From: Bacteroidota bacterium
GTDB taxonomy: Bacteria; Bacteroidota; Bacteroidia; Bacteroidales; VadinHA17
Assembly: GCA_003250475.1 (NCBI GenBank)
Contig: QKGI01000064.1
Coordinates: 1,629 to 65,628 of the forward strand
Length of the DNA stretch: 64,000 nt
Reading direction: 5' to 3'
Shown: piece after piece, positions 17,143-59,948 of the stretch
How positions within the stretch are numbered: position 1 is the stretch's first letter
Layout of the letters: the number at the start of each line of letters is the position of its first letter
Notes under the pieces: generated by a model
What the model saw: the letters and a program-made list of their open reading frames with translations, nothing else
Told to the model about the DNA's origin: nothing
The model's database searches: none
Program-made: the position numbers and the translations under genes

Positions 17143-17185
17143 AAAAAGGGGTGCCGGCCATAACAGACCGGCACCCCTCATTTTT
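17143..17185. terminator. Bidirectional intrinsic terminator hairpin (copy 2, identical to 11081-11123)
   Basis: Same 43 nt 'AAAAAGGGGTGCCGGCCATAACAGACCGGCACCCCTCATTTTT'. Lies 75 nt downstream of the minus-strand gene ending at 17260. Confidence 0.7.
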
Positions 17186-17259
17186 GCCGTCGTGTTCAAC
17201 CAACGGACAGTTTCAGACCTGATTCATGTATATTTGACTGTATCCCGTGTTCTTTTACT

Positions 17260-39893: not shown

Positions 39894-39927
39894 AGCCCCG
39901 CACTGAATACAGGCGGGGCTTTTTTTT
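39894..39927. terminator. Bidirectional intrinsic terminator between convergent genes
   Basis: 'AGCCCCGC actgaatacag GCGGGGCT TTTTTTT': 8-bp stem, T-run, and 'TTAAA' upstream. Confidence 0.7.
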
Positions 39928-40607: not shown

Positions 40608-40630
40608 TTTATCGTTATGATTGTTGGTTC
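40600..40630. repeat. Left arm of perfect 31-bp inverted repeat (partner 42121-42151)
   Basis: 'TTTTTCATTTTATCGTTATGATTGTTGGTTC' is the exact reverse complement of 42121-42151. Contains the ATG of gene 39927..40607. Confidence 0.9.
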
Positions 40631-40637
40631 TTTATAA

Positions 40638-40725
40638 GTCTGAAGGTCCGAAGGTCTGGTGTCTGAAGGTCTGAGGTCTGAAGGTCTGAAGTCTTGCGGT
40701 CCTGCAGTCTTGCAGTCTTGCAGAC
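40638..40725 (+). repeat. Mosaic GTC-unit array A
   Basis: Read directly: GTCTGAAG GTCCGAAG GTCTGGT GTCTGAAG GTCTGAG GTCTGAAG GTCTGAA GTCTTGCG GTCCTGCA GTCTTGCA GTCTTGCA GAC, followed by GCGAAGC at 40729-40735. Confidence 0.9.
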
Positions 40726-40919
40726 TTGGCGAAGCGTAGCGGGGATCTTCGACCGTAAGGTAGGGACAGTCTTCCTGTGCCGTTGTCTGCCACCTTTAAA
40801 AGGAGGTTTTTGACCCCTTTTACTATATTCCTCAATTATCATACCGTAAAGTTAGTGATTTAACTGAGAGCCTTTTCAGTCTTTGTACTCACTCCATAAA
40901 CAGATGCTAATACTATGTT

Positions 40920-40980
40920 TGTAACAACTTTGTAACATTTGTGTAATCCGAATGTAACAAAAGTGCAGGTATTTTGTAAT
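40920..40980 (+). promoter_or_regulatory. Phased TGTAA(C/T) direct repeats, candidate Pho-box array/promoter of the porin-pst cluster
   Basis: TGTAAC at 40920, 40931 and 40953; TGTAAT at 40942 and 40975. All are on an exact 11-bp register. The last ends 25 nt before the porin ATG (41005). Confidence 0.4.
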
Positions 40981-41004
40981 GTCAAACCATCAACTTCAAT
41001 TCTG

Positions 41005-42000
41005 ATGAAAATTAAGATCTTATCACTAATGTTCACCCTTCTTGTTCTGACAGCAGTTACAGCCTCAGCCCAGGATAGTGACGAATTCAAACCGGGAGGT
41101 AAAATGTACGGGCTGTTTTTCACCAACTTCCATACCACTTATGAAGGCGGGTCAAACAGTTCTGCTTTTGAAGTCACACGTTCATACCTTGGATTCGAAT
41201 ACAGGTTCTCCGAAGAGATATCTACGCGTATCCTGTATGACGGCACAACAAATGTCATTGACGGAAAAACTCTCTATTCGGGATATCTCCGTAATGCCTT
41301 TATCCAGTATAAAAAAGGCAGTTTCATTTTACAGGGCGGCCTCATAGGTATGGAGCAGGTCTCGGCGATGGAAAAGATATGGTCATACCGGTTCATATCA
41401 AAGCCTCCGATTGATTATTCAGGGATGGTACAGGTTGCCGACCTCGGTGTAAGTACAAAGTTCAACGCCGTGGAATGGCTCTCGGTTGATATCTCTGTCA
41501 CGCAGGGACGCGGGGTTAAGAACCTGGTTGCTGACGGCACCTATAAGCTGTCTGCAGGCTTTACCATGACTCCGGCCACCCACATGATCATAAGAGGCTT
41601 TTATGATATGATGGGATCATCAGGCAGCATGCAGCGAACAGCAAGCATCACTGCGGCATATACCGGACCCCGGCTTACTGCCGGCGCTGAATATTTCAGG
41701 CAGGACAACAACAAGATGACTGTGGGAAACGACTATTCGGGTGTCAGTTTCTTCACCAGTATCCCCCTCGCAGAAAAGGTGAACCTGTTTGCCAGGTATG
41801 ACCGCATAAGCTCTACCATACCTGAAGGAGAAACAGATCCGTGGAATATTACAAAAGACGGGTCATATCTTTTTGCAGGTATTGCCTTCTCGCCGGCACG
41901 AAATATAAGAATATCACCTAACTTTATTGGGTATATTCCATCAGACAGCGAATCGGATATGAGGAGTACAATAGGATTGAACGTGGAGGCAAGATTCTGA
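41005..42000 (+). CDS. Outer-membrane porin, probably phosphate-selective porin O/P-like
   Basis: Start at 'MKIKILSLMFTLLVLTAVTASAQ'. Alternating beta-strand pattern with C-terminal F. Immediately upstream of pstS. Confidence 0.5.
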   Translation: MKIKILSLMFTLLVLTAVTASAQDSDEFKPGGKMYGLFFTNFHTTYEGGSNSSAFEVTRSYLGFEYRFSEEISTRILYDGTTNVIDGKTLYSGYLRNAFIQYKKGSFILQGGLIGMEQVSAMEKIWSYRFISKPPIDYSGMVQVADLGVSTKFNAVEWLSVDISVTQGRGVKNLVADGTYKLSAGFTMTPATHMIIRGFYDMMGSSGSMQRTASITAAYTGPRLTAGAEYFRQDNNKMTVGNDYSGVSFFTSIPLAEKVNLFARYDRISSTIPEGETDPWNITKDGSYLFAGIAFSPARNIRISPNFIGYIPSDSESDMRSTIGLNVEARF

Positions 42001-42058
42001 CAGTTAAATACTTAACCCTGATCAGGCACTGACATAATGAAACAACCGGCCATAAAAA

Positions 42059-42116
42059 GACCTTCAGACCTTCAGACACCAGACCTTCAGACCTCAGACC
42101 TTCAGACCTTCAGACC
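42059..42116 (-). repeat. Mosaic GTC-unit array B (inverted relative to A)
   Basis: 'GAC CTTCAGAC CTTCAGAC ACCAGAC CTTCAGAC CTCAGAC CTTCAGAC CTTCAGAC C', the reverse complement of GTCTGAAG-type units. Confidence 0.9.
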
Positions 42117-42120
42117 AAAA

Positions 42121-42151
42121 GAACCAACAATCATAACGATAAAATGAAAAA
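42121..42151. repeat. Right arm of perfect 31-bp inverted repeat
   Basis: 'GAACCAACAATCATAACGATAAAATGAAAAA'. Contains an ATG (42144) that is out of frame with pstS. Confidence 0.9.
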
Positions 42152-42201
42152 TCAGAGCGGCCTCCTGCGGCAGCGGCCCGTCAACAGGCAAAGGAAGCAA
42201 A

Positions 42202-43173
42202 GTGACTCTCTCGGCTGCCGGGGCGACTTTCCCACAGCCGTTCTATAACCTAGCATTCAAGAAACACAGTGAGGCAGGTGGACCCCTTATCAACTACGGA
42301 GGAATAGGCTCCGGAGGGGGCATCAAGAGTCTGCGTGACCAGGTAGTTGACTTCGGCGCAACCGATGCCTACCTCTCCGATGCCGAGCTGGCGGAGATGC
42401 CGGGTGAGGTGGTACACATACCCACATGCATAGGCGCCGTGGTCATAGCCTACAACCTTCCCGGGGTGAACGGGCTGCAACTTACTCCTGCCCTCCTTGA
42501 AGGTATCTTTCTTGGCACTATAAAGACATGGAACGATCCGCAGATTACAGCCGTCAACCCGGATATCACGTTGCCGGCCATGGACATCACAGTTGTGTAC
42601 CGCTCTGACGGAAGCGGCACCACATACATCTTCAGTGACTATATGTCGAAGGTAAGCGCAGTCTGGAATGAAGAGATGGGCACCGGCAAAGCTCTTAACT
42701 GGCCGGCAGGTATCGGAGCCAAGGGTAACCCCGGCGTTGCAGGCACCATCAGCCAGAGCCAGGGGACGGTAGGCTATATCGGCTTTGAATATGCTTACGC
42801 GCAGAAAATCCCGATGGCCAGGGTGATGAACAGCTCGGGCTACTTTATCGAGCCTACGCTTGACTCATTCACTGCCGCGGCTGATGTCGACATGCCTGCT
42901 GACACGAGGGTGATGATAACCAACTCGCCAAACAGCGAGGCCTACCCTATCACCAGCTTCACATGGATCATCATGTACAGGGAGCAGTCGTACGGCAGGC
43001 ACTCCCGCGAAGCAGCCGAGGCAACAGTACAAACTGTCAAATGGCTTACCGGTCCCGACGCACAGGCCATAGCCACCAGCGTGCATTATGCCTCACTGCC
43101 TCAGAACGCCGTTGACCAGGCAGCCATATTGCTGAAGGGTATCACATTTGACGGAGAACCACTCCTGAAGTAA
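42202..43173 (+). CDS. pstS: Phosphate ABC transporter substrate-binding protein PstS, 5' end anomalous (no signal peptide encoded)
   Basis: 'SAAGATFPQPFY', 'GGIGSGGGI', 'YRSDGSGTTYIF' are PstS motifs. The listed start is a GTG. The same frame upstream reads '*KIRAASCGSGPSTGKGSK' (a lipobox relic) and is closed by a TGA at 42145. Confidence 0.8.
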   Translation: MTLSAAGATFPQPFYNLAFKKHSEAGGPLINYGGIGSGGGIKSLRDQVVDFGATDAYLSDAELAEMPGEVVHIPTCIGAVVIAYNLPGVNGLQLTPALLEGIFLGTIKTWNDPQITAVNPDITLPAMDITVVYRSDGSGTTYIFSDYMSKVSAVWNEEMGTGKALNWPAGIGAKGNPGVAGTISQSQGTVGYIGFEYAYAQKIPMARVMNSSGYFIEPTLDSFTAAADVDMPADTRVMITNSPNSEAYPITSFTWIIMYREQSYGRHSREAAEATVQTVKWLTGPDAQAIATSVHYASLPQNAVDQAAILLKGITFDGEPLLK

Positions 43174-43177
43174 CGGG

Positions 43178-44029
43178 ATGGCAGGCGACAGGATAACAAA
43201 AGCCCTGCTCTTCATCTCGTCACTGACAATACTGCTGCTCAGTGCCGGAATAATCCTCTCCCTTGCCGGAGGGGCTGTTCCGGCTTTTAAGGAATACGGG
43301 ATAGGGTTCATCACCTCCACGAAATGGAACCCCACAGCCGGAAGCGAGGAGTACGGGGCGATGTCGTTCATTGCCGGCACGGTAATCACCTCGATACTGG
43401 CACTGATAATATGTATCCCTATGGCCTTCTCCACCTCCCTGTTCATAGCGGAATACTACAGAGGCACGCGGACAGCTGGTATACTGCGCAGCCTTGTAGA
43501 TCTCCTGGCAGGTATCCCATCGATTGTTTACGGATTCTGGGGGTTCTATGCTCTCCGGCCGTTGCTTGTAAGCACCGGTCTTACCGACCAGGGGTTCGGC
43601 ATATTCACTGCCTCGCTGGTGCTGGCGATAATGATCGTCCCCTATGCCACCTCTCTCAGCGCCGAGATCATCTCCATGGTGCCCTCCGAACTCAAGGAGG
43701 CCGCCTACTCCCTCGGGGCGACACGCCGGGAGGTTATTTTCCACGTGGTCATCCCTTCAGCACGCTCGGGTATAATAGCCAGCTTCATCCTGGCACTGGG
43801 CCGTGCACTCGGTGAGACCATGGCAGTTACGATGCTTATCGGCAACGCCAACATAATGCCCCGGGGACTCTTTGCGCCGGGTAACACAATGGCATCGGTC
43901 ATCGCCAACCAGTTCGGAGAGGCTGACGGACTGAAGATGAGCGCCCTGATTGCAATAGGGCTGCTGCTCTTCCTGATAACCGCCCTGGTCAACGCCCTTG
44001 GTAAAATGATCATCAAACGCTTTGCCTGA
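43178..44029 (+). CDS. pstC: Phosphate ABC transporter permease PstC
   Basis: 6-TM permease with 'EAAYSLGATRREVIFHVVIPSA' EAA loop. Operon position after pstS. Confidence 0.85.
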   Translation: MAGDRITKALLFISSLTILLLSAGIILSLAGGAVPAFKEYGIGFITSTKWNPTAGSEEYGAMSFIAGTVITSILALIICIPMAFSTSLFIAEYYRGTRTAGILRSLVDLLAGIPSIVYGFWGFYALRPLLVSTGLTDQGFGIFTASLVLAIMIVPYATSLSAEIISMVPSELKEAAYSLGATRREVIFHVVIPSARSGIIASFILALGRALGETMAVTMLIGNANIMPRGLFAPGNTMASVIANQFGEADGLKMSALIAIGLLLFLITALVNALGKMIIKRFA

Positions 44030-44918
44030 CAGACAGATGAAGAAGGAACTGAGTGACAATATAGGCAGGCGTAACCGTGCAAACGGCTGGTTCAGATCTC
44101 TGGTCATTGCAGGATCGGTGATCACGATTATTCCGATATTCCTTATCGTCGGCAACCTCGCCGTCAAGGGGTACCGCCAGATAAACCTGGCTTTCTTCAC
44201 CGAGCCGGCCCCCGATACTTTCCAGGCGATGATGGCAGCCTCATCCGGCGAGATCATCCCGGGCGGTATTGCCAACGGTCTCACAGGATCACTCCTCATG
44301 GTGCTTATGGCATCCCTGATAGCTGTCCCCCTGGGGCTCATGACAGGGATATACATCTATGAGAACAGCACCAGGAGGTATGCCGCTTTCATCAGGAGCC
44401 TGACAGAGATATTACAGGGGGTGCCGTCAATCATACTTGGTATCATAGCCTACTTATGGATCGTTAAGAACATCACCAGGGGCTATTCTGCCCTGGCTGG
44501 CAGCGTTTCCCTGACCATCATGATGCTGCCGCTTATAATACGGTCAACGGAGGAGACGATGCGTATGATACCGGTGACCATCAGGGAGGCAGCCTTTGCC
44601 CTGGGCACCCCCTATTACAAGATGATATACAAGATACTTATACCCGTCAGCTTCAGCGGTCTTGCCACCGGCATACTGCTGGCCCTCTCGAGGATACTGG
44701 GAGAGACAGCCCCGCTCATGCTCACTGCCCTGGGAAGCCCTGCCATCAGCCTTGACATCACCCGGCCCGTCAGTGCAGTGCCACTGCTTATATGGGATTT
44801 TTACAATGATCCCAATATGGTCAACCTGGTATGGAGTGCATCACTATTCCTTATGGCCTTTGTTCTCTCAATGAACCTGCTGGCGCGCAGCGTGGCCTCA
44901 AAACATAAATATATCTGA
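44022..44918 (+). CDS. pstA: Phosphate ABC transporter permease PstA
   Basis: 'REAAFALGTPYYKMIYKILIP' EAA loop. 8-bp overlap with pstC. Confidence 0.85.
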   Translation: MPDRQMKKELSDNIGRRNRANGWFRSLVIAGSVITIIPIFLIVGNLAVKGYRQINLAFFTEPAPDTFQAMMAASSGEIIPGGIANGLTGSLLMVLMASLIAVPLGLMTGIYIYENSTRRYAAFIRSLTEILQGVPSIILGIIAYLWIVKNITRGYSALAGSVSLTIMMLPLIIRSTEETMRMIPVTIREAAFALGTPYYKMIYKILIPVSFSGLATGILLALSRILGETAPLMLTALGSPAISLDITRPVSAVPLLIWDFYNDPNMVNLVWSASLFLMAFVLSMNLLARSVASKHKYI

Positions 44919-44923
44919 TACAG

Positions 44924-45700
44924 ATGAACGATACCCCTGACAGCGAACATGTACTTACAATAAAAGAGCTCTCTATCGCCTATGAGCCGGGCCGTTATGC
45001 CGTCAATGACGTCAGTGCCGCCATCAGGCGTAACAGCATCACCGCCATTATGGGCCCCTCGGGTTGCGGCAAGAGCACCCTGCTGCGGGCCATGAACCGC
45101 ATGCATGAACTCTACCCGAACATTGAGACTAAAGGCGACATCCTGCTTGACGGCCAGAGCATATTCTCCATGTCAGTTATCGAGCTCAGACGAAAGGTCG
45201 GCATGGTCTTCCAGAGACCGAACCCCTTTCCCAACATGACAATTTATGAAAATGTGGTTGCTGGTTTCAGCCTGAACGACATAAGGATGAAGAAGAGTCA
45301 GCGTGACGACATAGTGGAGGAGGCTCTCAGAAACGTTGCACTATGGGATGAGGTCAAGGAATCGTTATACAGGAAGGGGACATTCCTTTCCGGGGGACAG
45401 CAGCAGCGGTTGTGCGTGGCAAGAGCCATAGCCTTCAACCCGGAGGTACTGCTGCTCGATGAACCGACCTCGGCCCTTGATCCTGTCGCCACCTCCAAGA
45501 TAGAGGATCTCCTCGGCGAACTGAAGAAAAAATATACGCTTGTCCTTGTAACCCATAACATGTCACAGGCGGCAAGGATATCAGACGACTCCATGTTCAT
45601 GTACCTGGGCGAGCTCGTCGAGTCGGGACGTACGGAGATACTCTTTACCAACCCGAAGGATTCACGCACCGAAGCATATCTTACGGGGAAATTCGGATGA
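44924..45700 (+). CDS. pstB: Phosphate ABC transporter ATP-binding protein PstB
   Basis: Walker A 'GPSGCGKST', signature 'LSGGQQQRLCVARA', Walker B 'LLLDEPTSALD'. PstB-typical 'MVFQRPNPFP'. Confidence 0.9.
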   Translation: MNDTPDSEHVLTIKELSIAYEPGRYAVNDVSAAIRRNSITAIMGPSGCGKSTLLRAMNRMHELYPNIETKGDILLDGQSIFSMSVIELRRKVGMVFQRPNPFPNMTIYENVVAGFSLNDIRMKKSQRDDIVEEALRNVALWDEVKESLYRKGTFLSGGQQQRLCVARAIAFNPEVLLLDEPTSALDPVATSKIEDLLGELKKKYTLVLVTHNMSQAARISDDSMFMYLGELVESGRTEILFTNPKDSRTEAYLTGKFG

Positions 45701-45739
45701 TTATGAGACATTTTCATACATTTGTTAAAACGCCTTACC

Positions 45740-46432
45740 ATGAGTGAGAAAAAAGAACTGGCATTGAACGAGATACAGGCCAGCTTCAACGAGATGGCAA
45801 ACATGGTCCTTCACCAGCTTACTCTCCTGGAGAAGCTGATGAATACGGCCGATGAGAAATCATTTAATGAGATTGCTGCAGAGATTGACACTGCCGAGAA
45901 CCGTATTGACAACCTTGAGGTTGTCATCAGTGAGCAGTTCACCAACACCATTGTACTGTATCAGCCCGTAGCCTCCGACGTGCGCCGGCTTGTGGCAATA
46001 TACCGTATGACTATCAACATTGAACGTATCGGTGACCGTATCGTCAACCTATGCAGGATCATCAGGACTATCCGTAATAGCAATGAATACGCCTCTGTCT
46101 CCATGCTGATATCCAACATGCTGACTTCCGGCACCATTATGGTTGAGAAATCTCTCCTCTCTTTCATTAACTCGGATCCGGACTATGCCATATGGACTAT
46201 CAAGAACGACTCGGTGGTTGACGAGATGAACCATAAGCTTCTGCTGGGCCATATCCGTAAGGAGGTTTTAGACGACAAGACAAGGCTGATGCTGATGAGT
46301 TATATCGAGCTGAAGGATATGATCTCCAATATTGAAAGGATTGCCGATCATGCCACCAACATTGCCGAAGCCTCAATCTACTCCCTCCAGGGAACAGACA
46401 TCAGGCATACAGGCATAGGCAAGGAAGAATGA
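45740..46432 (+). CDS. phoU: Phosphate signalling regulator PhoU
   Basis: Two PhoU repeats with 'INIERIGDRIVNL' and 'SNIERIADHATNIAE'. ATG at 45740 preferred over the listed TTG. Confidence 0.85.
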   Translation: MSEKKELALNEIQASFNEMANMVLHQLTLLEKLMNTADEKSFNEIAAEIDTAENRIDNLEVVISEQFTNTIVLYQPVASDVRRLVAIYRMTINIERIGDRIVNLCRIIRTIRNSNEYASVSMLISNMLTSGTIMVEKSLLSFINSDPDYAIWTIKNDSVVDEMNHKLLLGHIRKEVLDDKTRLMLMSYIELKDMISNIERIADHATNIAEASIYSLQGTDIRHTGIGKEE

Positions 46433-46456
46433 CAACAGGGTATCAAACACCATAAC

Positions 46457-46564
46457 CTTGAGACTTCAGACCTTCAGACCTCAGACCTTCAGACCTTCAG
46501 ACCCCAAACCTTCAGACCTCAGACCTTGAGACCCCAGACAGAGCGAAGCGACAGACCTTCAGAC
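46457..46564 (-). repeat. Mosaic GTC-unit array C
   Basis: About 13 CTTCAGAC/CTCAGAC/CTTGAGAC/CCCAGAC units plus GCGAAGC at 46543-46549. Fills 108 of the 142 nt between phoU and the response regulator and ends 10 nt before its ATG. Confidence 0.9.
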
Positions 46565-46574
46565 GTACCACACA

Positions 46575-47252
46575 ATGAATGAAAGAAAAAAAATACTGGC
46601 AGTTGATGATGAGGAGGATATCCTTGAGATCCTCTCCTTCAACCTAGCTGCTGAAGGATATGACGTAGACACCTGTACCTCGGCGGAGGAGGCCCTGCGT
46701 AAGAACCTGGCATCATATGACCTGCTTATCCTGGATGTGATGATGAGTCATGTCTCCGGCTTCCGGCTGGCGGAAAAAATCAGGAAAGAACTCTCACTGG
46801 CAACACCTGTAATATTCCTCACCGCCAGGGATACGGAAAACGACAGGATCACAGGATTCAGCCTCGGCGCTGACGACTACCTGGCCAAACCATTCAGTAT
46901 CAGGGAACTGACTGCAAGAGTGAAGGCCGTACTGCGCAGGTCGGCACCGGCCCGCATGACCAGGACCACACCGGCAGGCAGCTTCACCATCGATACCGAA
47001 AACAAGACTGTCTATTCTGACGGGAAACCCCTGGGGTTGACCCGCAAGGAGTATGAGATACTCTCGCTGTTATTGCGCAGCGAGGGCAAGATCTATTCAA
47101 GGAACGAGATACTGTCAAGAGCATGGGGCGATGATGTCATTGTCACTGACAGGACAGTTGACGTTACGATTGCGCGCATCAGGAAGAAGCTTGGTGTGAA
47201 TGGCAACATGATTAAAAATAAATCGGGTTACGGATATTACCTGGGCGAATGA
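46575..47252 (+). CDS. OmpR/PhoB-family response regulator (PhoB-like by context)
   Basis: Receiver 'ILAVDDEEDILE...LLILDVMM'. Winged-helix 'LTRKEYEILSLL...RTVDVTIARIRKKL'. Downstream of pstSCAB-phoU. Confidence 0.8.
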   Translation: MNERKKILAVDDEEDILEILSFNLAAEGYDVDTCTSAEEALRKNLASYDLLILDVMMSHVSGFRLAEKIRKELSLATPVIFLTARDTENDRITGFSLGADDYLAKPFSIRELTARVKAVLRRSAPARMTRTTPAGSFTIDTENKTVYSDGKPLGLTRKEYEILSLLLRSEGKIYSRNEILSRAWGDDVIVTDRTVDVTIARIRKKLGVNGNMIKNKSGYGYYLGE

Positions 47253-47264
47253 AAATATGTTCCT

Positions 47265-49025: not shown

Positions 49026-49072
49026 GATAGCTCCCTCTTCCTGACGAAGATTAATCCTTCGCTCGCTACCCG

Positions 49073-49297
49073 ACCGCATGACTGCATGACTGCATGACTG
49101 CAAGACTTCAGACCTTCAGATTGAAGAGCGAAGCTCTGAAACCCCGCACACGAAGTGTCGGGGCCTTCAGACTTCAGACCTTCAGACGGAGCCCCGCACC
49201 GCGGGGCGACAGACTGCATGACTGCAAGACCGCATGACTGCAAGACTTCAGACCTTCAGACCTTCAGACTTCAGACCTTCAGACCTCAGACCCTGAC
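49073..49297 (-). repeat. Mosaic GTC-unit array D (largest, two sub-elements)
   Basis: CGCATGAC/TGCATGAC/TGCAAGAC and CTTCAGAC units. Hairpins at 49126-49136 (GAGC GAA GCTC), 49142-49163 and 49191-49207 (GCCCCGC acc GCGGGGC). Abuts the selD stop codon. Confidence 0.9.
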
Positions 49298-49298
49298 C

Positions 49299-50336: not shown

Positions 50337-50344
50337 GGTTTCTG

Positions 50345-50965: not shown

Positions 50966-51143
50966 TTATCCGATTTAGCCCACAAATATAGCCAGAAATG
51001 GCTATTTTTGAAAGTCAATTAATCTGTGCCATGAAACCCGCATCACCTCAAAACATAACAAGTGTTGAACGAAACGTGGCACCATGTGAATTCTCATTCT
51101 TTGCGGGGCATTGTCTCATCTCTTATCACCAAATTTTATTCAG

Positions 51144-52562: not shown

Positions 52563-52579
52563 GGATTGTGTTGAATATT

Positions 52580-52736
52580 GTCTTGCAGTCTTGCAGTCTT
52601 GCGGTCGTGCGGTCGTGCGGTCGTGCGGTCTGTCGCCCCGCAGGGCGGGGCTCCGTCTGAGGTCGGAAGGTCTGAAGGTCTGAAGTCTGAAGGTCTGAGG
52701 TCGGAAGGTCTGAGGTCGGAAGGTCTGAGGTCGGAG
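52580..52736 (+). repeat. Mosaic GTC-unit array E
   Basis: GTCTTGCA x2, GTCTTGCG, GTCGTGCG x3, core GTCTGTCGCCCCGCaggGCGGGGCTCC (52628-52654), then GTCTGAGG/GTCGGAAG/GTCTGAAG units. Lies between convergent stop codons (17 nt and 4 nt gaps). Confidence 0.9.
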
Positions 52737-52740
52737 CTGG

Positions 52741-53718
52741 TTATTTCCTGCCTGCTGACTGGAGCCTCACAATGACCTTGCGTCCTGCAGCCTTCATGCC
52801 TCCTGACGCGTCATTGATGGCCAGCTGTACCAGTCCGGTCACCTCGTTGATCATATCGGGATATAGCCCGCAGAAGGATGCCAGTATCTCCATCCCGTAT
52901 GCCCTGGGCGCCACCGGTGTGTTTCTCTCCCGCATTATTGACATGCAGTAGTCAATAAGAACTGTATGATGAGACTGTGGTATGTCATTTATGTCGCTTC
53001 TCATGATCACCCTCATGAACGACCTCTGGACGCTCTCATTGGGCACCACGGGCAGAGCATCTATCATCATCGCCAGGTAGGGCGAAAGCAAAGCAGGGTT
53101 AATATCCGATACTTTCGAGAGGGCCCAGGACGACATGAAGCCTACACGCTTCTCCCTGCTTGACGACAGGGTTACCAGTTGTGACAGCAGGGTGGCGTCA
53201 GCGGCAGCCGAACCGGCTATCATGGTTATCTCCTCCGTACTGGTTACCCGTCCCATCATCCTGGCCATCTCATCCCCGGCCTCAGCAGTAACAACCGGGT
53301 CCGGGCTCTCCTGATCCGTGATGGTAAAATCGATATGCACTGATGAGTATTGTTTTGCCACAGGTATGTCTGCCGCCGTCATGTCAAGGCTGGTCAGCTC
53401 ATCAGGTTTCATCCACCGGTAATCGTCATGTTCCCTCAGCTGTGGCTTGGTACTAAGCGTCTCGCATAGAAAAGGTATCAGCCTGATCTGCCTGTCGCCG
53501 TAATCATATTCAACACTGTCAAGGCTACCTGTAATGATAATATTCATGCCAAGCTCCTCGTCAATCTCCCTGATTATGCAATCCTCATGATCCTCTCCCG
53601 GCATGGTCTTTCCACCGGGAAACTCCCACTTTCCGCTGTTGGCCATTCCCGGGCCACGTCTTACGGCAAGTACCAGCCCGTCATCATTGCGTATCACCGC
53701 ACAGGTCACATCAGTCAT
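52741..53718 (-). CDS. NUDIX hydrolase (MutT-like) fused to a C-terminal alpha-helical domain of unknown function
   Basis: Nudix box 'GKWEFPGGKTMPGEDHEDCIIREIDEELG'. The remaining ~190 aa are helical-repeat-like. Confidence 0.75.
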   Translation of the reverse strand: MTDVTCAVIRNDDGLVLAVRRGPGMANSGKWEFPGGKTMPGEDHEDCIIREIDEELGMNIIITGSLDSVEYDYGDRQIRLIPFLCETLSTKPQLREHDDYRWMKPDELTSLDMTAADIPVAKQYSSVHIDFTITDQESPDPVVTAEAGDEMARMMGRVTSTEEITMIAGSAAADATLLSQLVTLSSSREKRVGFMSSWALSKVSDINPALLSPYLAMMIDALPVVPNESVQRSFMRVIMRSDINDIPQSHHTVLIDYCMSIMRERNTPVAPRAYGMEILASFCGLYPDMINEVTGLVQLAINDASGGMKAAGRKVIVRLQSAGRK

Positions 53719-54179
53719 TGCTGCCGGCTTGTAATAGTGACATAATCAGGTATATTATCAAGAAGAGCAAATGTATGCGCATCCATATCCACCCTGCCGG
53801 CAAAATGTGTTATGCCATTTGTAACCACAAGGTATCTCACGCCGTAGTTGAAATTGTAGTTGATGATCTGGTCAAAGACCTCCTGGCTGATCTTCACCTG
53901 CGGAGCCTTGCATTCGACGATCATTACCGGATCTCCGGCCCTGTCATGAACCAGTATGTCTGCCCTGCGAAGCATCGAATGGAGTCTGAAAGAGGCCTCA
54001 ATGCTGATCAGTCCCGGAGGGTAACCAAGATATTCAATGAGATAGCAGACAAAGTGCTGTCTTACCTGTTCTTCAGGCGTAAGCGTCACATACTTCCTCC
54101 TTACAGGGTCAAAGATGAGCCTGTTCTCAGGACCATCTTTTATGGTCAATGAACATGGAGGCAGTTTCAGCGGTTTCAA
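53715..54179 (-). CDS. HsdR_N-like (type I restriction enzyme R N-terminal domain) small protein
   Basis: 'EEQVRQHFVCYL...RADILVHDRAGDPVMIVECKAP' shows PD-(D/E)xK-like 'D...ECK'. 4-bp overlap with the NUDIX gene. Confidence 0.6.
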   Translation of the reverse strand: MKPLKLPPCSLTIKDGPENRLIFDPVRRKYVTLTPEEQVRQHFVCYLIEYLGYPPGLISIEASFRLHSMLRRADILVHDRAGDPVMIVECKAPQVKISQEVFDQIINYNFNYGVRYLVVTNGITHFAGRVDMDAHTFALLDNIPDYVTITSRQQ

Positions 54180-54241
54180 CTTTTATTGTATTTTTGGTTA
54201 CGCTTAGCAAGGGCAAATATAAACAAACAGCAACGGAGATC

Positions 54242-55012
54242 ATGAGAACCAAGGAAGATATAGTTAACAACTGGCTGCCGCGCTATACAGGCAAGACCCT
54301 GGATACGTTCGGTGATTTTATCCTGCTGGTTAACTTCACCCTTTATGTCGAGATGTTCGCCAAATGGCATAATGTGGAGGTTGAGGGCAGGGACAAGAAC
54401 TGGCCCAGTGCCACTGCGGACGGGATCAGCATCATAAACTTCGGGATGGGCAGTCCTAATGCCGCTACGATCATGGACCTCCTTAGTGCCATCCAGCCCA
54501 AAGCCGTCCTCTTTCTTGGCAAGTGCGGCGGTCTGAAGAAAAAGAACAAGCTTGGTGATCTGATACTGCCTATCGCTGCTATAAGGAGCGATGGTACCTC
54601 GAACGATTATCTTCCGCAGGAGATCCCGGCACTGCCGGCATTCAAGCTCCAGAGCGCCGTCTCGGCTGCCATTGTCAGGAACTCTCTCGAGTACTGGACC
54701 GGGACGGTATATACAACCAACAGGCGCGTCTGGGAGTATGATGACCGCTTTAAAAAATACCTTGTTAAGACAAGGGCCATGGCCATCGATATGGAGACAG
54801 CAACCATCTTCACGGTAGGCTTTGCCAATGAGATACCTACGGGGGCCCTTCTCCTTGTCTCCGACCAGCCTATGATCTCTACAGGCATCAAGACGGAACT
54901 GAGCGACATCAAGGTGACATCACAGTTTGCCGAGACACACCTCCGCATCGGGATTCAGGCCCTGACAGAGATAAAGGATAACGGAATATCTGTTAAACAT
55001 CTGCGGTTCTGA
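54242..55012 (+). CDS. Nucleoside phosphorylase-fold protein (AMP nucleosidase-like)
   Basis: PNP_UDP_1-like 'NFGMGSPNAATIMDLL', 'FLGKCGGL', 'AIDMETATIF'. Start moved to the Met at 54242. Confidence 0.6.
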   Translation: MRTKEDIVNNWLPRYTGKTLDTFGDFILLVNFTLYVEMFAKWHNVEVEGRDKNWPSATADGISIINFGMGSPNAATIMDLLSAIQPKAVLFLGKCGGLKKKNKLGDLILPIAAIRSDGTSNDYLPQEIPALPAFKLQSAVSAAIVRNSLEYWTGTVYTTNRRVWEYDDRFKKYLVKTRAMAIDMETATIFTVGFANEIPTGALLLVSDQPMISTGIKTELSDIKVTSQFAETHLRIGIQALTEIKDNGISVKHLRF

Positions 55013-56019
55013 TGGCTGCCGATTACAAAGAGATTGTCAGGGACCTGAAAAACAGGATCTACAAACCGGTCTATTTTCTTGCCGGCAAGGAGCCATATTA
55101 CATAGACCTTATAACAGATTATATTGAAGAAAAGGTCCTCGATGAGTCGGAGAAGGCTTTCAACCAGACCGTCCTCTACGGGCTTGACGTGTCGGTGACA
55201 CAGGTGATCGAGACATGCCGCCGTTTTCCGATGATGTCGAACCAGCAGGTAGTGGTTGTGCGTGAAGCACAGAAGATGAAGAAGATAGACGACCTGCTTG
55301 TATATGTCGAAAACCCTCTCAACTCAACCATACTTGTCATTGCCTATAAGTATGAGGACCTTGACAAACGCAAATCGTTGTATAAATCACTCTCAAAAAA
55401 GGGATGGTATTTTGAGTCGGACAAGGTACCCGAGTACCAGATCCCGGGATGGATTGACAGGTATCTTACTGACAGGGGCATTATGACCGGTACGGATGCC
55501 TCCCGGCTGCTGTCGGAGTTTCTCGGTAATGACCTCGGCAAGATCGCGAATGAGCTTGACAAGCTGATCATCTCGCTTCCGAAGGAGAACCCGCGCATTA
55601 CTACCGGGCTTATTGAAAAGAGCATAGGCATCAGCAAGGACTACAGTCCCAACGAGCTGTGGAAAGCCATTGTATACCGCGATCCGCTCAAGGCAGCCAG
55701 GGTAGTCAACTACTACTCGGCCCACTCCAAGAAGGAGATAATACCTCTTATCTTTCCGGTGCTCTTCTCCAGCTTCAGCCGTGTTCTGATCTTTCACAGC
55801 CTCAAGGACAGGACCGACAGCAACGTGGTGGCGATGCTGAAGACCTACCCGGGCTACGTCAGGGATTTCCGGGCGGCGGCAGCGCTTTATAACGCAGGAG
55901 CCTGTATGAACATCATCACTCTGATACGTTCATATGACCTCAAGGCAAAGGGGTTCGGCGAGGCAGGCAGTGATACCGGCGACCTGCTGCGGGAGCTGGT
56001 TTTTAAGATCATGCATTGA
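55012..56019 (+). CDS. holA: DNA polymerase III delta subunit
   Basis: 335 aa. 'PVYFLAGKEPYYID', 'VVVVREAQ'. Helical C-terminus typical of HolA. Confidence 0.75.
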   Translation: MAADYKEIVRDLKNRIYKPVYFLAGKEPYYIDLITDYIEEKVLDESEKAFNQTVLYGLDVSVTQVIETCRRFPMMSNQQVVVVREAQKMKKIDDLLVYVENPLNSTILVIAYKYEDLDKRKSLYKSLSKKGWYFESDKVPEYQIPGWIDRYLTDRGIMTGTDASRLLSEFLGNDLGKIANELDKLIISLPKENPRITTGLIEKSIGISKDYSPNELWKAIVYRDPLKAARVVNYYSAHSKKEIIPLIFPVLFSSFSRVLIFHSLKDRTDSNVVAMLKTYPGYVRDFRAAAALYNAGACMNIITLIRSYDLKAKGFGEAGSDTGDLLRELVFKIMH

Positions 56020-56206
56020 TTGAAGCCGGCAGTAACTGTAACTCAAAGAGAGTATCCTCTCCCCGGACCGGTTTAACGGTGATGCGGCCGAAAAACTCAC
56101 CGGCACCTGTACTCCTGCAGGGACTCTTTTCAATCATTGCCACCATCGTGGTTTCTCCCCGGGCTTAAGTAGGATACCCTGCCTATGACCTCAGGTATGA
56201 GTGAAC

Positions 56207-56232
56207 AAAAACTGCCGCATCATGGGCGGCAG
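56207..56232 (-). terminator. Intrinsic terminator of the yqgE-like gene
   Basis: 'AAAAA CTGCCGC atcatgg GCGGCAG' on the plus strand, giving hairpin plus U-run on the minus strand 29 nt after the stop. Confidence 0.6.
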
Positions 56233-56260
56233 GCATATGGTTATTCTCATCTTCAACGGA

Positions 56261-56848
56261 TCAGTTCATATCCGGTGATTCGGGGAACTCAGCCCAGATG
56301 CGGTACTTGTTGTTGAGTGATCTCAGCACGTCACGCCACACATTGCCGCGGCTCTTCATTATCACATCGGCAGGCACCCTGGCTATGACCCATGAGTTCT
56401 CACCGAGCTCACGCTTGAGCTGACCCTTCTCCCACCCGGAATAGCCGAGGAAGAAGCGCACCTGGTCACGGCCTACAGTACCGGTGGCGATAAGATTGCG
56501 CAGTGCATCTATCTCCCCTCCCCACCATATGCCGGGCAGAACCGGCACGCTGCCGGGCACCCTGGTGCCCAGTGTATGGAGGTAATGCAACGTGTCAGGC
56601 GCTACCGGCCCGCCAACGGAGAGATGCTCATCCCAACCGTCAAAGCCCTCCACGGCACTGCTGACCATAAGATCGATGACACGGTTAAGGATAAAACCTA
56701 CTGTGCCATCCGCAGTATGTTCGGTGATAAAAACGATTGTACGGTTGAAAAAGCGGTCGGTCAGGAAAGGTTCCGAGATGAGGACCCTGCCCTTACCCGC
56801 TATCTTGTCCTCGGGATTGATGCTGAATATATCAGGATACTGGCCCAT
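56261..56848 (-). CDS. YqgE/AlgH-family (UPF0301) protein
   Basis: 'GRVLISEPFLTDRFFNRTIVFITEHTADGTVGFILN', 'GGPV', 'FFLGYSGW'. Confidence 0.75.
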   Translation of the reverse strand: MGQYPDIFSINPEDKIAGKGRVLISEPFLTDRFFNRTIVFITEHTADGTVGFILNRVIDLMVSSAVEGFDGWDEHLSVGGPVAPDTLHYLHTLGTRVPGSVPVLPGIWWGGEIDALRNLIATGTVGRDQVRFFLGYSGWEKGQLKRELGENSWVIARVPADVIMKSRGNVWRDVLRSLNNKYRIWAEFPESPDMN

Positions 56849-56950
56849 GTGACAATTGGTATGAAAAGACAAAATAATAACTTTTGACGTCAAAATCAAG
56901 AAAAATCATGGAAAATAGTAAATTGCACGTTCCAACTTTCAAACCCTTTC

Positions 56951-58462
56951 ATGTCCGTTAAGAAGACCCGAGTCCCCACAATGCTGCAATCGGTACTGCC
57001 ACTGGCGGTACTCATCCTGCTGCTCGCCCTCAATGTAAAATACTTTCGCGATGACACTCTCTCAGGCGCCAATCAGATAGCCCTGATCCTTGCTGCTGCC
57101 GTAGCAGGAGTCATTGCTATCTTCCTGGGCTTCAGGTGGACTTTCCTTCTCAAGAGAGTGACAAACACAATTATGACTGCCATGCCGGCTATGCTGATCC
57201 TGTTTCTCATAGGGTCACTGGCAGGCACCTGGATGGTCAGCGGTGTCATCCCGATGCTTATCTATTATGGCCTGGAGATACTCAGCCCGACGATCTTTCT
57301 CTTTGCCACGGTATTCATCTGTTCACTGGTCTCTGTTTCAACGGGAAGCTCCTGGTCGACTGTTGCCACCATAGGTGTTGCCCTGCTGGGCATAGGGACT
57401 ACACTGGGGTTCAACGAGGCCATGGTTGCCGGGGCTATTATCTCCGGCGCCTACTTCGGCGACAAGATGTCACCCCTCTCCGATACCACCAACCTTGCTC
57501 CTGCTGTTGCCGGCACCGACCTCTTCACCCATATAAGATATATGGTATTAACAACAGGACCGTCGTGGATCATTACCCTGGTTATCTTTCTTATCATCGG
57601 TTTTTCAGGTGACTACACCGATGCTGCAACAACAACCACAGCCGTACGGAGTGCAATACTGGCAAAGTTCAATATCAGTCCCATACTCCTCATTGTACCT
57701 GCCTTCCTGATTTTCATCATAGTAAGGAAGGTGCCGCCTCTGCCGGCGCTGCTGGCCGGAACGCTTCTCGGGGCTATCTGTGCTGTCATATTTCAGCCCG
57801 ACCTGCTCAGGGAGATTTCGGGCACAGGGGGCTCTTTTGTAAAACAGGCGTACATTGCAGTGACAAAGGCAATGTTCGGACCGGTTTCAGTGGCCACAGG
57901 AGACGCCTCCGTGGATGAGCTGCTGCGGACCAAAGGCATGGCCGGCATGCTTAATACCGTCTGGCTGATAATATGCGCTATGTTCTTCGGTGGAATGATG
58001 GAAGCGTCAGGTATGCTGAAGACTATCACAGAAAGGATGATGAAGTCAGTACGCAATGCAGGGACACTGGTCGGGTCAACGGTGGCTACCTGCCTCTTTT
58101 TCAATGTCACTGCCTCCGATCAGTACCTCTCAATAGTTATTCCCGGGAGGATGTATGCAAAGAAATTCCGTGACATGGGCTATAAACCCGAGCTTCTGAG
58201 CCGTACCCTTGAAGACTCAGGCACAGTCACCTCGGTGCTTGTACCGTGGAACACCTGCGGGGCTACACAATCGAGTGTACTGGGAGTATCAACATGGGCA
58301 TACGCTCCATATTGCTTCTTTAATATCATCAGTCCCCTCATGACGGTCTTTGTGGCAGCTGTAAAATTCAGGATAAGACGTTATACGCCTGAAGAGCTCG
58401 CCAGGGTTAAGGAGGAGGCCGACAGGGCTGACCGTGAGCTCTACAGCGAGGAGGAGTCGTGA
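56951..58462 (+). CDS. Na+/H+ antiporter, NhaC family
   Basis: 503 aa polytopic membrane protein. 'GSSWSTVATIGVAL' and 'SPLSDTTNLA' are NhaC-type motifs. Confidence 0.7.
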   Translation: MSVKKTRVPTMLQSVLPLAVLILLLALNVKYFRDDTLSGANQIALILAAAVAGVIAIFLGFRWTFLLKRVTNTIMTAMPAMLILFLIGSLAGTWMVSGVIPMLIYYGLEILSPTIFLFATVFICSLVSVSTGSSWSTVATIGVALLGIGTTLGFNEAMVAGAIISGAYFGDKMSPLSDTTNLAPAVAGTDLFTHIRYMVLTTGPSWIITLVIFLIIGFSGDYTDAATTTTAVRSAILAKFNISPILLIVPAFLIFIIVRKVPPLPALLAGTLLGAICAVIFQPDLLREISGTGGSFVKQAYIAVTKAMFGPVSVATGDASVDELLRTKGMAGMLNTVWLIICAMFFGGMMEASGMLKTITERMMKSVRNAGTLVGSTVATCLFFNVTASDQYLSIVIPGRMYAKKFRDMGYKPELLSRTLEDSGTVTSVLVPWNTCGATQSSVLGVSTWAYAPYCFFNIISPLMTVFVAAVKFRIRRYTPEELARVKEEADRADRELYSEEES

Positions 58463-58538
58463 ACACCTCCGGCTGAAGAACAAAGACGCCCGGCAATTGT
58501 TACATAATGGATATATCCGACAAAAAAAAATTTAAAAG

Positions 58539-58763
58539 ATGCTTGTGAAACTTCTTCTGATATCTGCAGTTCTTTTGGCCCTTGCCATGGCAGGACTTGC
58601 AATTACCATCCTCCTGAAACCAAAGGGACGTTTTCCAGATACCCATGTCGGACATAACAGGGAGATGCGGAAAAGAGGTATCACCTGTGCCCAGCATACA
58701 GATACCGGATGCAACCCGGTCGACGGGGCCGGATGCGCCGGCTGCGCCCTGATCGAAGATTAA
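58539..58763 (+). CDS. Small single-TM, four-Cys membrane protein (possible NqrM-like maturation factor)
   Basis: 74 aa: TM helix 'LLLISAVLLALAMAGLAITILL', then 'KPKGRFP...' and 4 Cys (C-x7-C-x7-C-x2-C). Convergent with and overlapping the apbE stop by 4 nt. Confidence 0.45.
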   Translation: MLVKLLLISAVLLALAMAGLAITILLKPKGRFPDTHVGHNREMRKRGITCAQHTDTGCNPVDGAGCAGCALIED

Positions 58764-59761
58764 TGCTTTTGTATCAGGCGTTTCATGCCTGGTGACACCC
58801 AGCTGTTCATGTCTCCAGTCTCATCAGAGTAGATGAGATAGCCTTCAAGGAAGTCGTTTCCCTCTATCAAGGAAATTGCGCTATCCGGGCCGGCAACCAT
58901 GCAGGCCGTAGCCCAGGCGTCGGCTACAGCTGCCTCCCGTGATATTATCGTTGCGCTGAGAAGCGTGTGCCTTACCGGGTAGCCAGTCCGGGGATCGATG
59001 GTATGAGAATACTTTATTCCATCCTCCACATAAAACTTCCTGTAGTTTCCGGAGGTGGCAAGAGAGCTGTTGTCTAGCCTGATCCTGGCCTGCAGGTCAG
59101 CCCCGGGAATATAGTTGCCGTCTGCAGGAGTGTCTATTCCCACAATCCATCCTTTGCCGTGTTTATCGCCCATTGTCCGTACCTCTCCTCCCACCTCAAC
59201 AAGAAACTCTCTGATTCCGGAACGTGCCAGCATGTCGGCAACAAGGTCAACGGTATACCCCTGGGCAACTGCGTTTACATCAATATACATGTTGGTGTCA
59301 GCCCTGACCAGCCTGTCACCTTCGAGATGCAATTTGTCCATCCCCACCAGGGCAAGCAACGAGTCGAGCATAGACTCATCAAACCTCTTCATGGCATCCG
59401 GACCAAAGCCCCAGGCCTCCACAAGAGGACCTATGGTAATATCAAAAAGCCCATGGCTCTGCCCGGAAACCATTGATGAGACCCTGAATACCTGGCGGAG
59501 AAGGCTGTCCGCAATATCGCTTCGGTTGCTGTTGATCTTCGATATTACCGAAGAATCATTATAAATGGACAGTGAATTGTCAATCTCTGCCAGCAGGGCT
59601 TCAGTCTGCTGCCTGAGAGCCATGATATCCACGCCCGGGGTCTTCTCTACCATTATGTGATAGGTTGTGCCCTGGGTAAGGCCGTTAATCGCCGGATACT
59701 CATGCCCGGAACAACCGGTTATGGCCAGGATGGCCGCCAATATTACGGGGAATCGGTTCAT
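58760..59761 (-). CDS. apbE: FAD:protein FMN transferase ApbE (lipoprotein)
   Basis: Start at 'MNRFPVILAAILAITGCSG'. 'GLFDITIGPLV', 'AVAQGYTVD', 'LATSGNY', 'HTIDPRTGYP'. The longer listed ORF only reads back into the repeat array. Confidence 0.85.
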   Translation of the reverse strand: MNRFPVILAAILAITGCSGHEYPAINGLTQGTTYHIMVEKTPGVDIMALRQQTEALLAEIDNSLSIYNDSSVISKINSNRSDIADSLLRQVFRVSSMVSGQSHGLFDITIGPLVEAWGFGPDAMKRFDESMLDSLLALVGMDKLHLEGDRLVRADTNMYIDVNAVAQGYTVDLVADMLARSGIREFLVEVGGEVRTMGDKHGKGWIVGIDTPADGNYIPGADLQARIRLDNSSLATSGNYRKFYVEDGIKYSHTIDPRTGYPVRHTLLSATIISREAAVADAWATACMVAGPDSAISLIEGNDFLEGYLIYSDETGDMNSWVSPGMKRLIQKH

Positions 59762-59771
59762 TATTTTTATT

Positions 59772-59930
59772 GTCTTGCGGTCTTGCGGTCTTGCAGTCTT
59801 GCAGTCTGTTTGCCAGCCCTGCAACCTGGCTCCTTCTCCGCCAGCCGGCGGATCGGCCCTGGTCTTGCGGTCTGTCGCCCCGCGGGGCGGGGCTCCGTCT
59901 GAGGTCTGAAGGTCTCAAGTCTGAAGGTCT
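59772..59930 (+). repeat. Mosaic GTC-unit array F (inside the nqr-apbE gene string)
   Basis: GTCTTGCG x2, GTCTTGCA x2, a 58-nt non-repeat insert (59804-59861), GTCTTGCG, core GTCTGTCGCCCCGCgggGCGGGGCTCC (59870-59896), then GTCTGAGG GTCTGAAG GTCTCAA GTCTGAAG. Confidence 0.9.
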
Positions 59931-59948
59931 ATAAGGACCTCCGGGAGA

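Follow-up and report, generated by a model that had tools for sequence, protein, structure and literature searches.

GTC-unit tandem arrays and small palindromic modules form an apparently undescribed intergenic repeat family in Bacteroidales

Six intergenic tracts, termed E1 to E6, occur in a 64,000-nucleotide stretch of a Bacteroidota bacterium genome (Bacteroidales, VadinHA17; contig QKGI01000064.1, positions 1,629 to 65,628), referred to here as the window. They are built of head-to-tail 7-8-nt units that begin with GTC, interspersed with small GC hairpins. The best explanation for E1-E6 is that they are copies of a dispersed, non-coding intergenic family that joins microsatellite-like arrays to small palindromic modules. 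The GTC-unit arrays apparently represent an undescribed family of a known class, the intergenic tandem repeats. On balance, we favor the view that they are short tandem repeats prone to slippage, which grow on dispersed palindromic modules and are mostly neutral or selfish, and that they act on the side as substrates for recombination.

We defined an array as three or more consecutive GTC N4-5 units on either strand, and assigned to each element the strand that reads GTC. A regular-expression scan of both strands of the window gave ten such segments, all of them inside E1 (40638-40725, + strand), E2 (42059-42116, - strand), E3 (46457-46564, - strand), E4 (49073-49297, - strand), E5 (52580-52736, + strand) and E6 (59772-59930, + strand). 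Direct reading and Tandem Repeats Finder (TRF) led to the same six places, and 50 dinucleotide-preserving shuffles of the window contained no array segment. The six tracts had been located correctly in a preliminary description of this DNA. Its statement that the first 40 kb is free of arrays also holds, as the scan found zero segments in positions 1-40000 on either strand.

Two classes of unit make up the arrays, as first described. We aligned them to tiled consensus units, not anchored on GTC. In class 1, GTCTGAAG or GTCTGA(A)G, each position is 87-100% conserved except for A7, whose loss in 12 of 49 units gives 7-mers. In class 2, GTCNTGCR, the TGC is as invariant as the GTC. All of the unit variants listed earlier are present. 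While GTC is indeed common to both classes, it is not the sole invariant part, since nearly the whole class-1 unit and the TGC of class 2 are conserved too. TRF periods were 7, 8, 15 and 23, the latter two corresponding to higher-order combinations (8+7 and 8+8+7).

All six tracts are intergenic (6/6), in a window that is ~90% coding. One gap is divergent, three are co-oriented and two are convergent. The CTTCAGAC strand lacks stop codons in all frames, such that a naive test of overlap with open reading frames (ORFs) wrongly places arrays within ORFs, and for this reason that test was not used. Arrays occupy 76-88% of the gap in four cases but only 15-22% in the gaps of E1 and E2, so the original impression that they nearly fill their intergenic spaces is accurate for the former alone. 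Along the GTC strand, blocks recur in the order class 1, class 2, hairpin, class 1. The palindromic modules of the family comprise hpA, hpB, a GCTTCGC/GCGAAGC mini-hairpin and the palindrome TCCGCCAGCYGGCGGA. The 27-nt hpA, GTCTGTC-GCCCCGCnnnGCGGGGC-TCC, has a 7-bp GC stem and a 3-nt loop and is present in three copies, one each in E4, E5 and E6; this is the 27-nt core noted previously. hpB, GCCCCGACACTTCGTGTGCGGGG followed by TTTC, lies in E4 and forms a longer stem with flanking TCTGAA/TTCAGA (z = -4.3). The mosaic, non-coding character of the tracts, with two unit classes around GC hairpins, is supported.

Arrays of this kind are widespread beyond the window. A scan with GTCTGAAGGTCTGAAGGTC, limited to one genome per species, gave at least 113 loci, compared to an estimated ~4 expected by chance. 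Judging from record titles, 65 of the 113 loci listed are from Bacteroidota, mostly metagenome-assembled genomes (MAGs) of Bacteroidales, several of them labelled 'uncultured Rikenella sp.'; other Bacteroidota listed include Lentimicrobiaceae, Saprospiraceae and Chitinophagales. Another 30 fall in the Verrucomicrobiota group (Akkermansiaceae, Luteolibacter, Haloferula, Prosthecobacter and one Pontiella), and 18 in other phyla, some at chance level. Verrucomicrobiota and the other phyla carry simpler GTCTGAAG/GTCGAAG arrays. Among the loci listed, class 2 accompanies class 1 only in Bacteroidales MAGs of ~50% GC, which is the clade of the window. Periods of 7 and 8 nt dominate the tandem repeats at these loci, where other 7-8-nt units, such as GCGATTT, are seen as well. 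Array copy number ranges from 2 to >20 and differs between strains.

The palindromic modules are dispersed along with the arrays. The 20-mer GAGCGAAGCGACAGACCTTC, which spans the mini-hairpin and the first unit, was found in 47 metagenome contigs. Once oriented, the metagenome contigs share a composite, (GTCTGARG)n - GTCTGTCGCTTCGCTCC - (GTCNTGCR)m, often followed by inverted arrays. Its left end adjoins either a same-strand stop codon or an opposite-strand start codon, and its orientation to genes is not fixed. The module hp-mini gave 62 matches in 52 loci, 58 of them beside arrays, and hpB, hpC and modE recur across loci. The 27-nt hpA core with its flanks had no match in the metagenome scan; all three copies are in the window, and hpA is so far private to the window's genome. 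In Butyricimonas synergistica DSM 23225, a 19-mer seed match was obtained, yet the 8 kb examined contained no array of at least three units.

Genes that flank the arrays are diverse. At low-GC loci, 148 distinct flanking ORFs match 147 Pfam families, the commonest being of a generic kind (ABC_tran, 4; NMN_transporter, 3). The pst-pho locus harbors four of the window's six arrays, which raises the idea that they are Pho-box-type regulatory sites. However, the spread of flanking genes over so many families indicates that this setting is coincidental as to function, and in the window itself arrays also adjoin hydrolase, NUDIX and apbE genes. Pho boxes are direct 7-nt repeats at 11-nt spacing in the promoters of the Pho regulon. 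The arrays have a period of 7-8 nt instead, and the same arrays stand between convergent stop codons and beside unrelated genes; hence, we reject an identity with Pho boxes. An assembly artefact might be suspected too, given that repeats confuse assemblers and that many other contigs start or end within arrays. Sequence on both sides of the arrays is unique, though, and the same architecture is seen in >150 independent assemblies, including contigs of 0.3-1.2 Mb. Moreover, the SelD protein of the window is 100% identical to a protein encoded on two Logan unitigs, one each from the runs ERR2179510 and SRR7216773, and both unitigs match the window to ...GGGGTGAGGTCAGGGTCTGA, ending at the first unit of E4. 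These two independent unitigs reproduce the selD-E4 junction exactly, and the gene-array junction is thus supported by independent reads, which answers for this junction the earlier call for a read-level check. The break of the unitigs at E4 is an effect of a multi-copy repeat on the de Bruijn graph. Taken together, these data effectively refute both artefact and Pho-box readings, to which we give very little credence.

How the arrays change is best seen in near-identical contigs (95-100% identity) from independent assemblies, which differ almost only by whole-unit indels of 8, 16, 23 or 32 nt within arrays. One caveat here is that this variation was seen at related loci, and not at the six arrays of the window. 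The loci L145 and L161 show 0 mismatches in 2021 nt and one 32-nt indel, and a single 32-nt indel separates L126 from L145. L036 and L137 are 99% identical and differ by an 8-nt and a 16-nt indel. The difference is 16 nt for L137 versus L142 and for L134 versus L153, 23 nt for L116 versus L144, and 8 nt for L130 versus L156 and for L120 versus L131. At one metagenomic locus (L116, L129, L140, L144 and L154), the number of class-1 units differs between strains, by 8 to 38 nt, immediately upstream of an opposite-strand start (CCATGG...), a case of possible repeat-driven expression variation.

Syntenic relatives at greater distance (L006, L040, L165, L166 and L168, at 72-83% identity, with Bacteroidales MAGs of 72-78% nucleotide identity among them) have gaps that are repeat-prone likewise, but what fills these gaps is not conserved. 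The synteny, together with homologues of SelD, identifies the host as a member of the Bacteroidales. In the hydrolase/NUDIX gap, which holds E5 on the + strand of the window, L006 has a class-1 array on the other strand. The same gap contains a full palindromic composite in L124/L146 (class 1, hairpin, class 2, loop, then class 2 and class 1 as reverse complements), CTGAGRR, GCATGGR and GTTAGCA units plus an N gap in L040, a GCGATTT hairpin pair in L166, and a duplicated hairpin module of ~65 nt in L168. The run of N in L040 (1510-1608) is within the CTGAGRR array and marks a masked stretch or a scaffold gap. The L168 module consists of two hairpins (TCCGCCAGCCGGCGGA + CGTTCCGCTTCAGCGGAACG) and is tandemly duplicated, in opposite orientations, in two convergent gaps (3690-3885 and 7039-7254), a behavior like that of REP/BIME elements. 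The phoR/selD gap, where the window has the 225-nt E4, is free of arrays in L006 and L166; L165 has GGACTGCC units there, and L168 has GTCTTCA units and hairpin modules. In the phoU/phoB gap, L166 carries a four-unit mosaic at the same place and in the same orientation as the 108-nt E3.

These observations are consistent with a simple scheme. Replication slippage or unequal recombination would add units to the arrays or remove them, singly or in blocks of 2-4, the unit-wise change being what is shown in relatives. With gain and loss of whole units, array length and composition would shift faster than point mutations accumulate. Palindromic modules may be copied among unrelated intergenic sites, with arrays growing on their arms, and selection would keep the elements within the gaps between genes. 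In this scheme the elements do not regulate particular genes, and most copies are probably neutral or selfish filler.

Relative orientation of neighboring arrays is strictly constrained. Among array pairs no more than 120 nt apart, 36 are direct, 38 are convergent (5'-GTC units ... GAC units-3') and 0 are divergent. The convergent pairs give strong hairpins on folding (z-scores as low as -15), and in many Verrucomicrobiota pairs one RNA strand folds far better than the other (e.g. -54.8 versus -29.4 and -68.3 versus -28.6 kcal/mol). In these pairs, one arm is long and homogeneous and the other is short and A-rich (U-rich on the better-folding strand). Seven loci from Verrucomicrobiota and other groups (L004, L021, L032, L033, L056, L085 and L091) have a long GTCTGAAG arm and a short A-rich arm (GTCTAAAA, GTCAAAA), and here one RNA strand folds 15-40 kcal/mol better. 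The asymmetry could reflect G.U wobble pairing together with selection on one transcript strand, or else mutational bias.

Such folding invites an explanation at the RNA level, as in REP elements, whereby array pairs and GC hairpins serve as 3'-end structures that terminate, insulate or shield mRNAs from exonucleases, and convergent polarity is selected because it sets the pyrimidine- and U-rich arm (YUUYAGAC) 3' in the stem. The 38:0 polarity, the hairpin scores and the strand asymmetry, with its G.U wobble and U-rich 3' arm, would all be accounted for, and several convergent pairs begin 0-17 nt 3' of a stop codon and fill convergent gaps. In E4, hpB is followed by TTTC on the sense strand of selD. 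Against this, array gaps are co-oriented, convergent and divergent in proportions of ~50/25/25, the ratio for no preference (gene calls were crude, and equal likelihood of the four flank orientations is assumed); paired arrays are found between divergent genes as well. Start and stop codons are equally frequent neighbors of the elements, whatever their orientation. The arrays of the window are unpaired, apart from the small hpB-centered GTCTGAA...TTCAGA stem and the distant E1/E2 pair, and E4 as a whole folds no better than shuffles on either strand (z of -0.9 and -0.6), with structure confined to local hairpins. A scan for terminator and promoter consensus sequences returned no site in any array, even though it found a canonical terminator elsewhere in the window (56232-56212), and no T-run follows hpA, TTTC at hpB being the only such run. 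We therefore regard an RNA-level role as an unlikely alternative to growth by slippage, with any function of the hairpins at transcript ends being secondary. Inheritance from palindromic seeds is a simpler reading of the convergent polarity than a terminator role. Slippage on both arms of such a seed, as in hpB with its flanking TCTGAA...TTCAGA, would generate convergent arrays only.

Inverted arms of fixed inward polarity also resemble terminal inverted repeats, and the elements might accordingly be non-autonomous mobile DNA of the REPIN, MITE or foldback type, with arrays as terminal inverted arms and a transposase encoded elsewhere, for instance a REP-associated tyrosine transposase (RAYT). 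Identical 16-27-nt modules at unrelated loci and in different species fit this idea, as do full palindromic composites such as L124/L146 and the differences in presence among relatives; REPINs are likewise inverted doublets that form hairpins (PMC3116915). Element ends are ragged, however, and copy number is variable. Among the 148 flanking ORFs, no transposase or other linked protein family is recurrent, a negative that pertains to flanks only (RAYTs are single-copy). Neither a target-site duplication nor a precise empty site could be defined in relatives, because their gaps are too diverged to align. On this evidence, we doubt that the elements are mobile in this sense.

A further possibility is that arrays provide a platform for a cooperative DNA-binding protein of the ribbon-helix-helix type (as omega, ParG and MetJ) or for a single-strand RNA-binding protein. 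The heptads bound by omega follow a rule of direct and convergent, not divergent, arrangement, and the GTC arrays too are direct or convergent and never divergent. The strong conservation of positions within units and the GTC-purine-rich unit family common to Bacteroidota and Verrucomicrobiota can be read in the same way. Yet the sites are not in constant register, with 7- and 8-nt units freely mixed, and copy number varies from 2 to >20 and among strains. There is no specificity for a gene class and no co-located candidate gene among the 148 ORFs, and in relatives unrelated units replace the arrays in the same gaps. A binding platform thus seems quite improbable.

Contrary to the initial view that the arrays resemble nothing nameable, intergenic tandem arrays of heptamers and octamers are a described class. 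STRR units read CCCCAGT, TTGGTCA and CAACAGT. The heptanucleotides of Calothrix are known as STRR (Mazel 1990). They are cited in the work of Rehm (2015, PMC4692102), which reports that GGGAATC arrays of Xanthomonas and GGGGAYT arrays of Nostoc are 89-93% intergenic and show extensive length variation, with flanking-gene changes compared between species. According to MacGregor (2015, PMC4679880), TAACTGA arrays of Beggiatoaceae, cyanobacteria and five Bacteroidetes are long and mixed with other heptamers, are lacking in close relatives, and have contigs ending in them; the same text summarizes the class of long simple sequence repeats with 5-11-nt units (Mrazek 2007). The GTC arrays belong to this class by their 5-11-nt head-to-tail units, intergenic location and whole-unit polymorphism at related loci. 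They do not match the named STRR1-3 or TAACTGA families, because the units differ (GTCTGA(A)G, GTCNTGCR).

The heptamer arrays and the GTC arrays have much in common: 7-8-nt units arranged head to tail, overwhelmingly intergenic location, several unit types per gap, strain variation in multiples of the unit, absence from the same site in close relatives, contigs that end inside, changes in flanking genes, a scattered distribution across phyla and no demonstrated function. In contrast, the GTC units are unrelated in sequence, with 8 as the dominant period and many 7-mers, small hairpin modules of conserved sequence are inserted among the arrays in an order that recurs, and the hosts are uncultured Bacteroidales and Verrucomicrobiota. 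Strictly convergent inverted pairs also set the GTC family apart, no such rule being found in the passages of PMC4679880 and PMC4692102.

Three other systems bear comparison. REP, BIME and REPIN elements of proteobacteria (Bertels and Rainey 2011, PMC3116915) are similarly extragenic and multi-copy, occur in mosaic clusters, contain palindromic modules that form hairpins in single-stranded DNA or mRNA, and make larger hairpins as inverted doublets, with close relatives differing strongly. In the GTC family, such doublets are seen at related loci, the window offering only the small hpB-centered stem and the distant E1/E2 pair. The earlier analogy with BIMEs was therefore fair, and so was its denial that the arrays are a single palindromic REP unit. 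GTC elements consist mostly of non-palindromic tandem 7-8-nt units rather than 20-40-nt palindromes, share no sequence similarity with REP, and show no recurrent RAYT among their 148 flanking ORFs; we do not claim membership in the REPINs. In Geobacter metallireducens, multicopy sites are made of 7-8-nt units repeated four or five times in tandem, and a site is frequently paired with one on the other strand (Aklujkar 2009, PMC2700814). Unlike GTC arrays, these hepta/octanucleotide elements have other sequences and a fixed small copy number, and are read as regulator binding sites. Aside from this, 27-nt hpA sits between class-2 and class-1 arrays. Small dispersed repeats (SDR), hairpin-capable modules of 21-27 nt, are said (Elhai, in 2008) to be inserted in a comparable manner in heptamer arrays of Nostoc punctiforme; hpA differs from these in sequence and phylum, and is found in the window only. 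By analogy, the best reading is that the GTC arrays would be a Bacteroidales counterpart of both the cyanobacterial STRR/heptamer arrays and the REP/BIME mosaics.

Searches against databases gave no other identity. Rfam yielded 0 matches in the whole window at gathering thresholds; at E<=1, the region 40400-60100 gave one irrelevant snoRNA match, outside the arrays, with none overlapping an array. This disposes of a curated Rfam family as the answer to the Rfam check suggested at the outset. No tRNA or tmRNA was detected. A literal text search of the searchable papers for the unit dimer gave no match, and literature searches returned no description of this particular GTC-unit family. CRISPR arrays, with 23-50-nt repeats and unique spacers, are rejected, as was rightly anticipated: units here are contiguous, 7-8 nt long and without spacers. 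Intrinsic terminators are rejected as well, as no array combines a GC stem-loop with a direct T-run. A role in rho utilization, through C-rich CUUCAGAC on the sense strand 3' of genes, fits three of three co-oriented gaps of the window and fails in the wider set, where orientations are 30 versus 28 and many arrays directly follow a stop codon on the G-rich strand.

Pfam scans place the six elements in the following gene order: a gene for a FadL-like outer-membrane protein, gene 39927-40607(-), E1, a porin-like gene, E2, pstS, pstC, pstA, pstB, phoU, E3, phoB, phoR, E4, selD(-), TusA/DsrE(-), an alpha/beta-hydrolase gene (+), E5, a NUDIX gene (-), further genes to apbE(-), E6 and gene 59949-61202(-). 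Outside the arrays, two other gaps (11058-11856, 799 nt, and 16366-17259, 894 nt) are unusually long, with no ORF of at least 90 amino acids and no GTC arrays.

E1 consists of seven class-1 units (40638-40691) and four class-2 units (40692-40725), and is followed by a GCGAAGCG...GATC module that begins at ~40729. E1 is upstream of both of its neighbors, at 30 nt from the start of the divergent gene 39927-40607(-) and at ~280 nt from the porin-like gene. E2, with seven class-1 units, stands between the porin-like gene (stop at 42000) and pstS. The two are inverted partners, with arms (40638-40691 versus 42062-42115) that are 91% complementary. Next to them is a 34-nt inverted repeat with 100% identity. 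Its left copy (40600-40633) holds the ATGAAAAA start and the leader of gene 39927-40607, and its right copy (42118-42151) abuts E2 and stands where the 5' end of pstS would be. The left copy and E1 make an arm of ~92 nt, which with the E2 side gives a ~92-nt inverted duplication around the porin gene. pstS itself apparently lacks its N-terminus (region 42118-42210): an in-frame TGA at 42145 is followed by KIRAASCGSG..., the end of a lipoprotein signal peptide, and the first listed in-frame start is GTG at 42202. The normal 5' end has given way to the right copy of the inverted repeat, which matches the leader and ATGAAAAA start of gene 39927-40607 perfectly. A pseudogene, the product of a recent inversion-duplication and the result of a local misassembly are all possible readings of pstS.

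E3 follows phoU (stop at 46432) and precedes phoB (start at 46575), with class-1 units on both sides of a mini-hairpin at 46541-56 (GTCTGTC-GCTTCGC-TC). This mini version of hpA reads GAGCGAAGCGACAGAC on the + strand, where GCTTCGC becomes GCGAAGC, the sequence of the d(GCGAAGC) mini-hairpin, which is very stable. An 8-nt tandem repeat, ACAGGCAT three times over, occupies 46394-46417 within the last codons of phoU; it is reminiscent of the GCATGGR units of L040, and may be an array that was absorbed into the 3' end of the coding sequence. E4, 225 nt in length, separates the convergent genes phoR (stop at 49025) and selD (stop at 49299). On the - strand it reads six class-1 units, four class-2 units, hpA (49188-49214), three class-1 units, hpB (49142-49164), a GAGCTTCGCTC mini-hairpin, two class-1 units and four class-2 units. 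E5 is also between convergent genes, alpha/beta-hydrolase (stop at 52562) and NUDIX (stop at 52741), and has six to seven class-2 units, hpA (52628-52654) and ten class-1 units. E6 has apbE (start at ~59761) on one side and gene 59949-61202(-), at its stop, on the other, and consists of four class-2 units, GCCCTGCAACCTGGCTCC (59816-59833), the palindrome TCCGCCAGCCGGCGGA (59837-59852), one class-2 unit, hpA (59870-59896) and four class-1 units.

Between gene 39927-40607 and selD (40610-49210 of the window), the pho/pst content is different in each relative compared. In L040 the whole pho block is absent, and gene 39927-40607 lies directly beside selD. L166 retains phoU-phoBR and is missing the porin-pstSCAB block between phoU and gene 39927-40607. 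L168 has phoBR only, with phoU absent as well, and L165 has a degraded phoB with a gap of 716 nt and two ORFs in place of an intact phoU. E1, E3 and E4 stand at three variable block boundaries of the locus. Thus the pst-pho setting, although coincidental as to function, is no coincidence where genome dynamics is concerned. Being long direct and inverted repeats of near identity, the elements would provide substrates for rearrangement, and examples are the inverted duplication of E1 and E2 and the variable pho/pst blocks that E1, E3 and E4 delimit.

Several points weigh against the favored reading, in which the arrays grow by slippage on dispersed modules. Slippage is deduced from differences between assemblies, most of which are short-read, and collapse of repeats could yield part of these unit-multiple differences. 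For E1-E6 themselves, we recovered no within-species variant, and look-ups of the exact proteins of phoB, the NUDIX gene and gene 39927-40607 for same-species contigs that span arrays gave no record. For the copying of modules, neither a transposase nor a target-site duplication nor a clean empty site was found in flanks and relatives. One variable block boundary of the pst-pho locus, pstB/phoU, has no array. Finally, the octamer family is kept across phyla, unit positions are strongly conserved and polarity is absolute. A purely neutral model does not predict such conservation of units across phyla or such polarity, and some constraint may therefore exist.

Cross-phylum recurrence of the octamer, 38:0 polarity and strand-asymmetric folding lift the finding above the ordinary, and are not explained by the evidence gathered. 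It is conceivable, though on present evidence improbable, that the GTC arrays are the arms of palindromic elements with dedicated machinery shared across phyla, either a GTC-acting transposase or nickase or a protein that reads the 7-8-nt units. If so, polarity, octamer conservation and strand asymmetry would be signs of a real, unrecognized system and not founder effects on junk DNA. A dedicated mechanism behind the polarity and the cross-phylum conservation, if there is one, would make the family a new repeat system comparable in scale to REP/RAYT. In either case, a large part of the intergenic DNA in a widespread group of uncultured Bacteroidales consists of these elements, and Verrucomicrobiota and other phyla carry related arrays. 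Short-read assemblies break at the arrays, which affects the contiguity and annotation of MAGs. The arrays mark junctions at which the gene blocks of relatives differ, here in pst/pho. As their copy number outpaces point mutation, they could serve as strain markers, and where an array immediately precedes a start codon, it could give rise to variation in gene expression.

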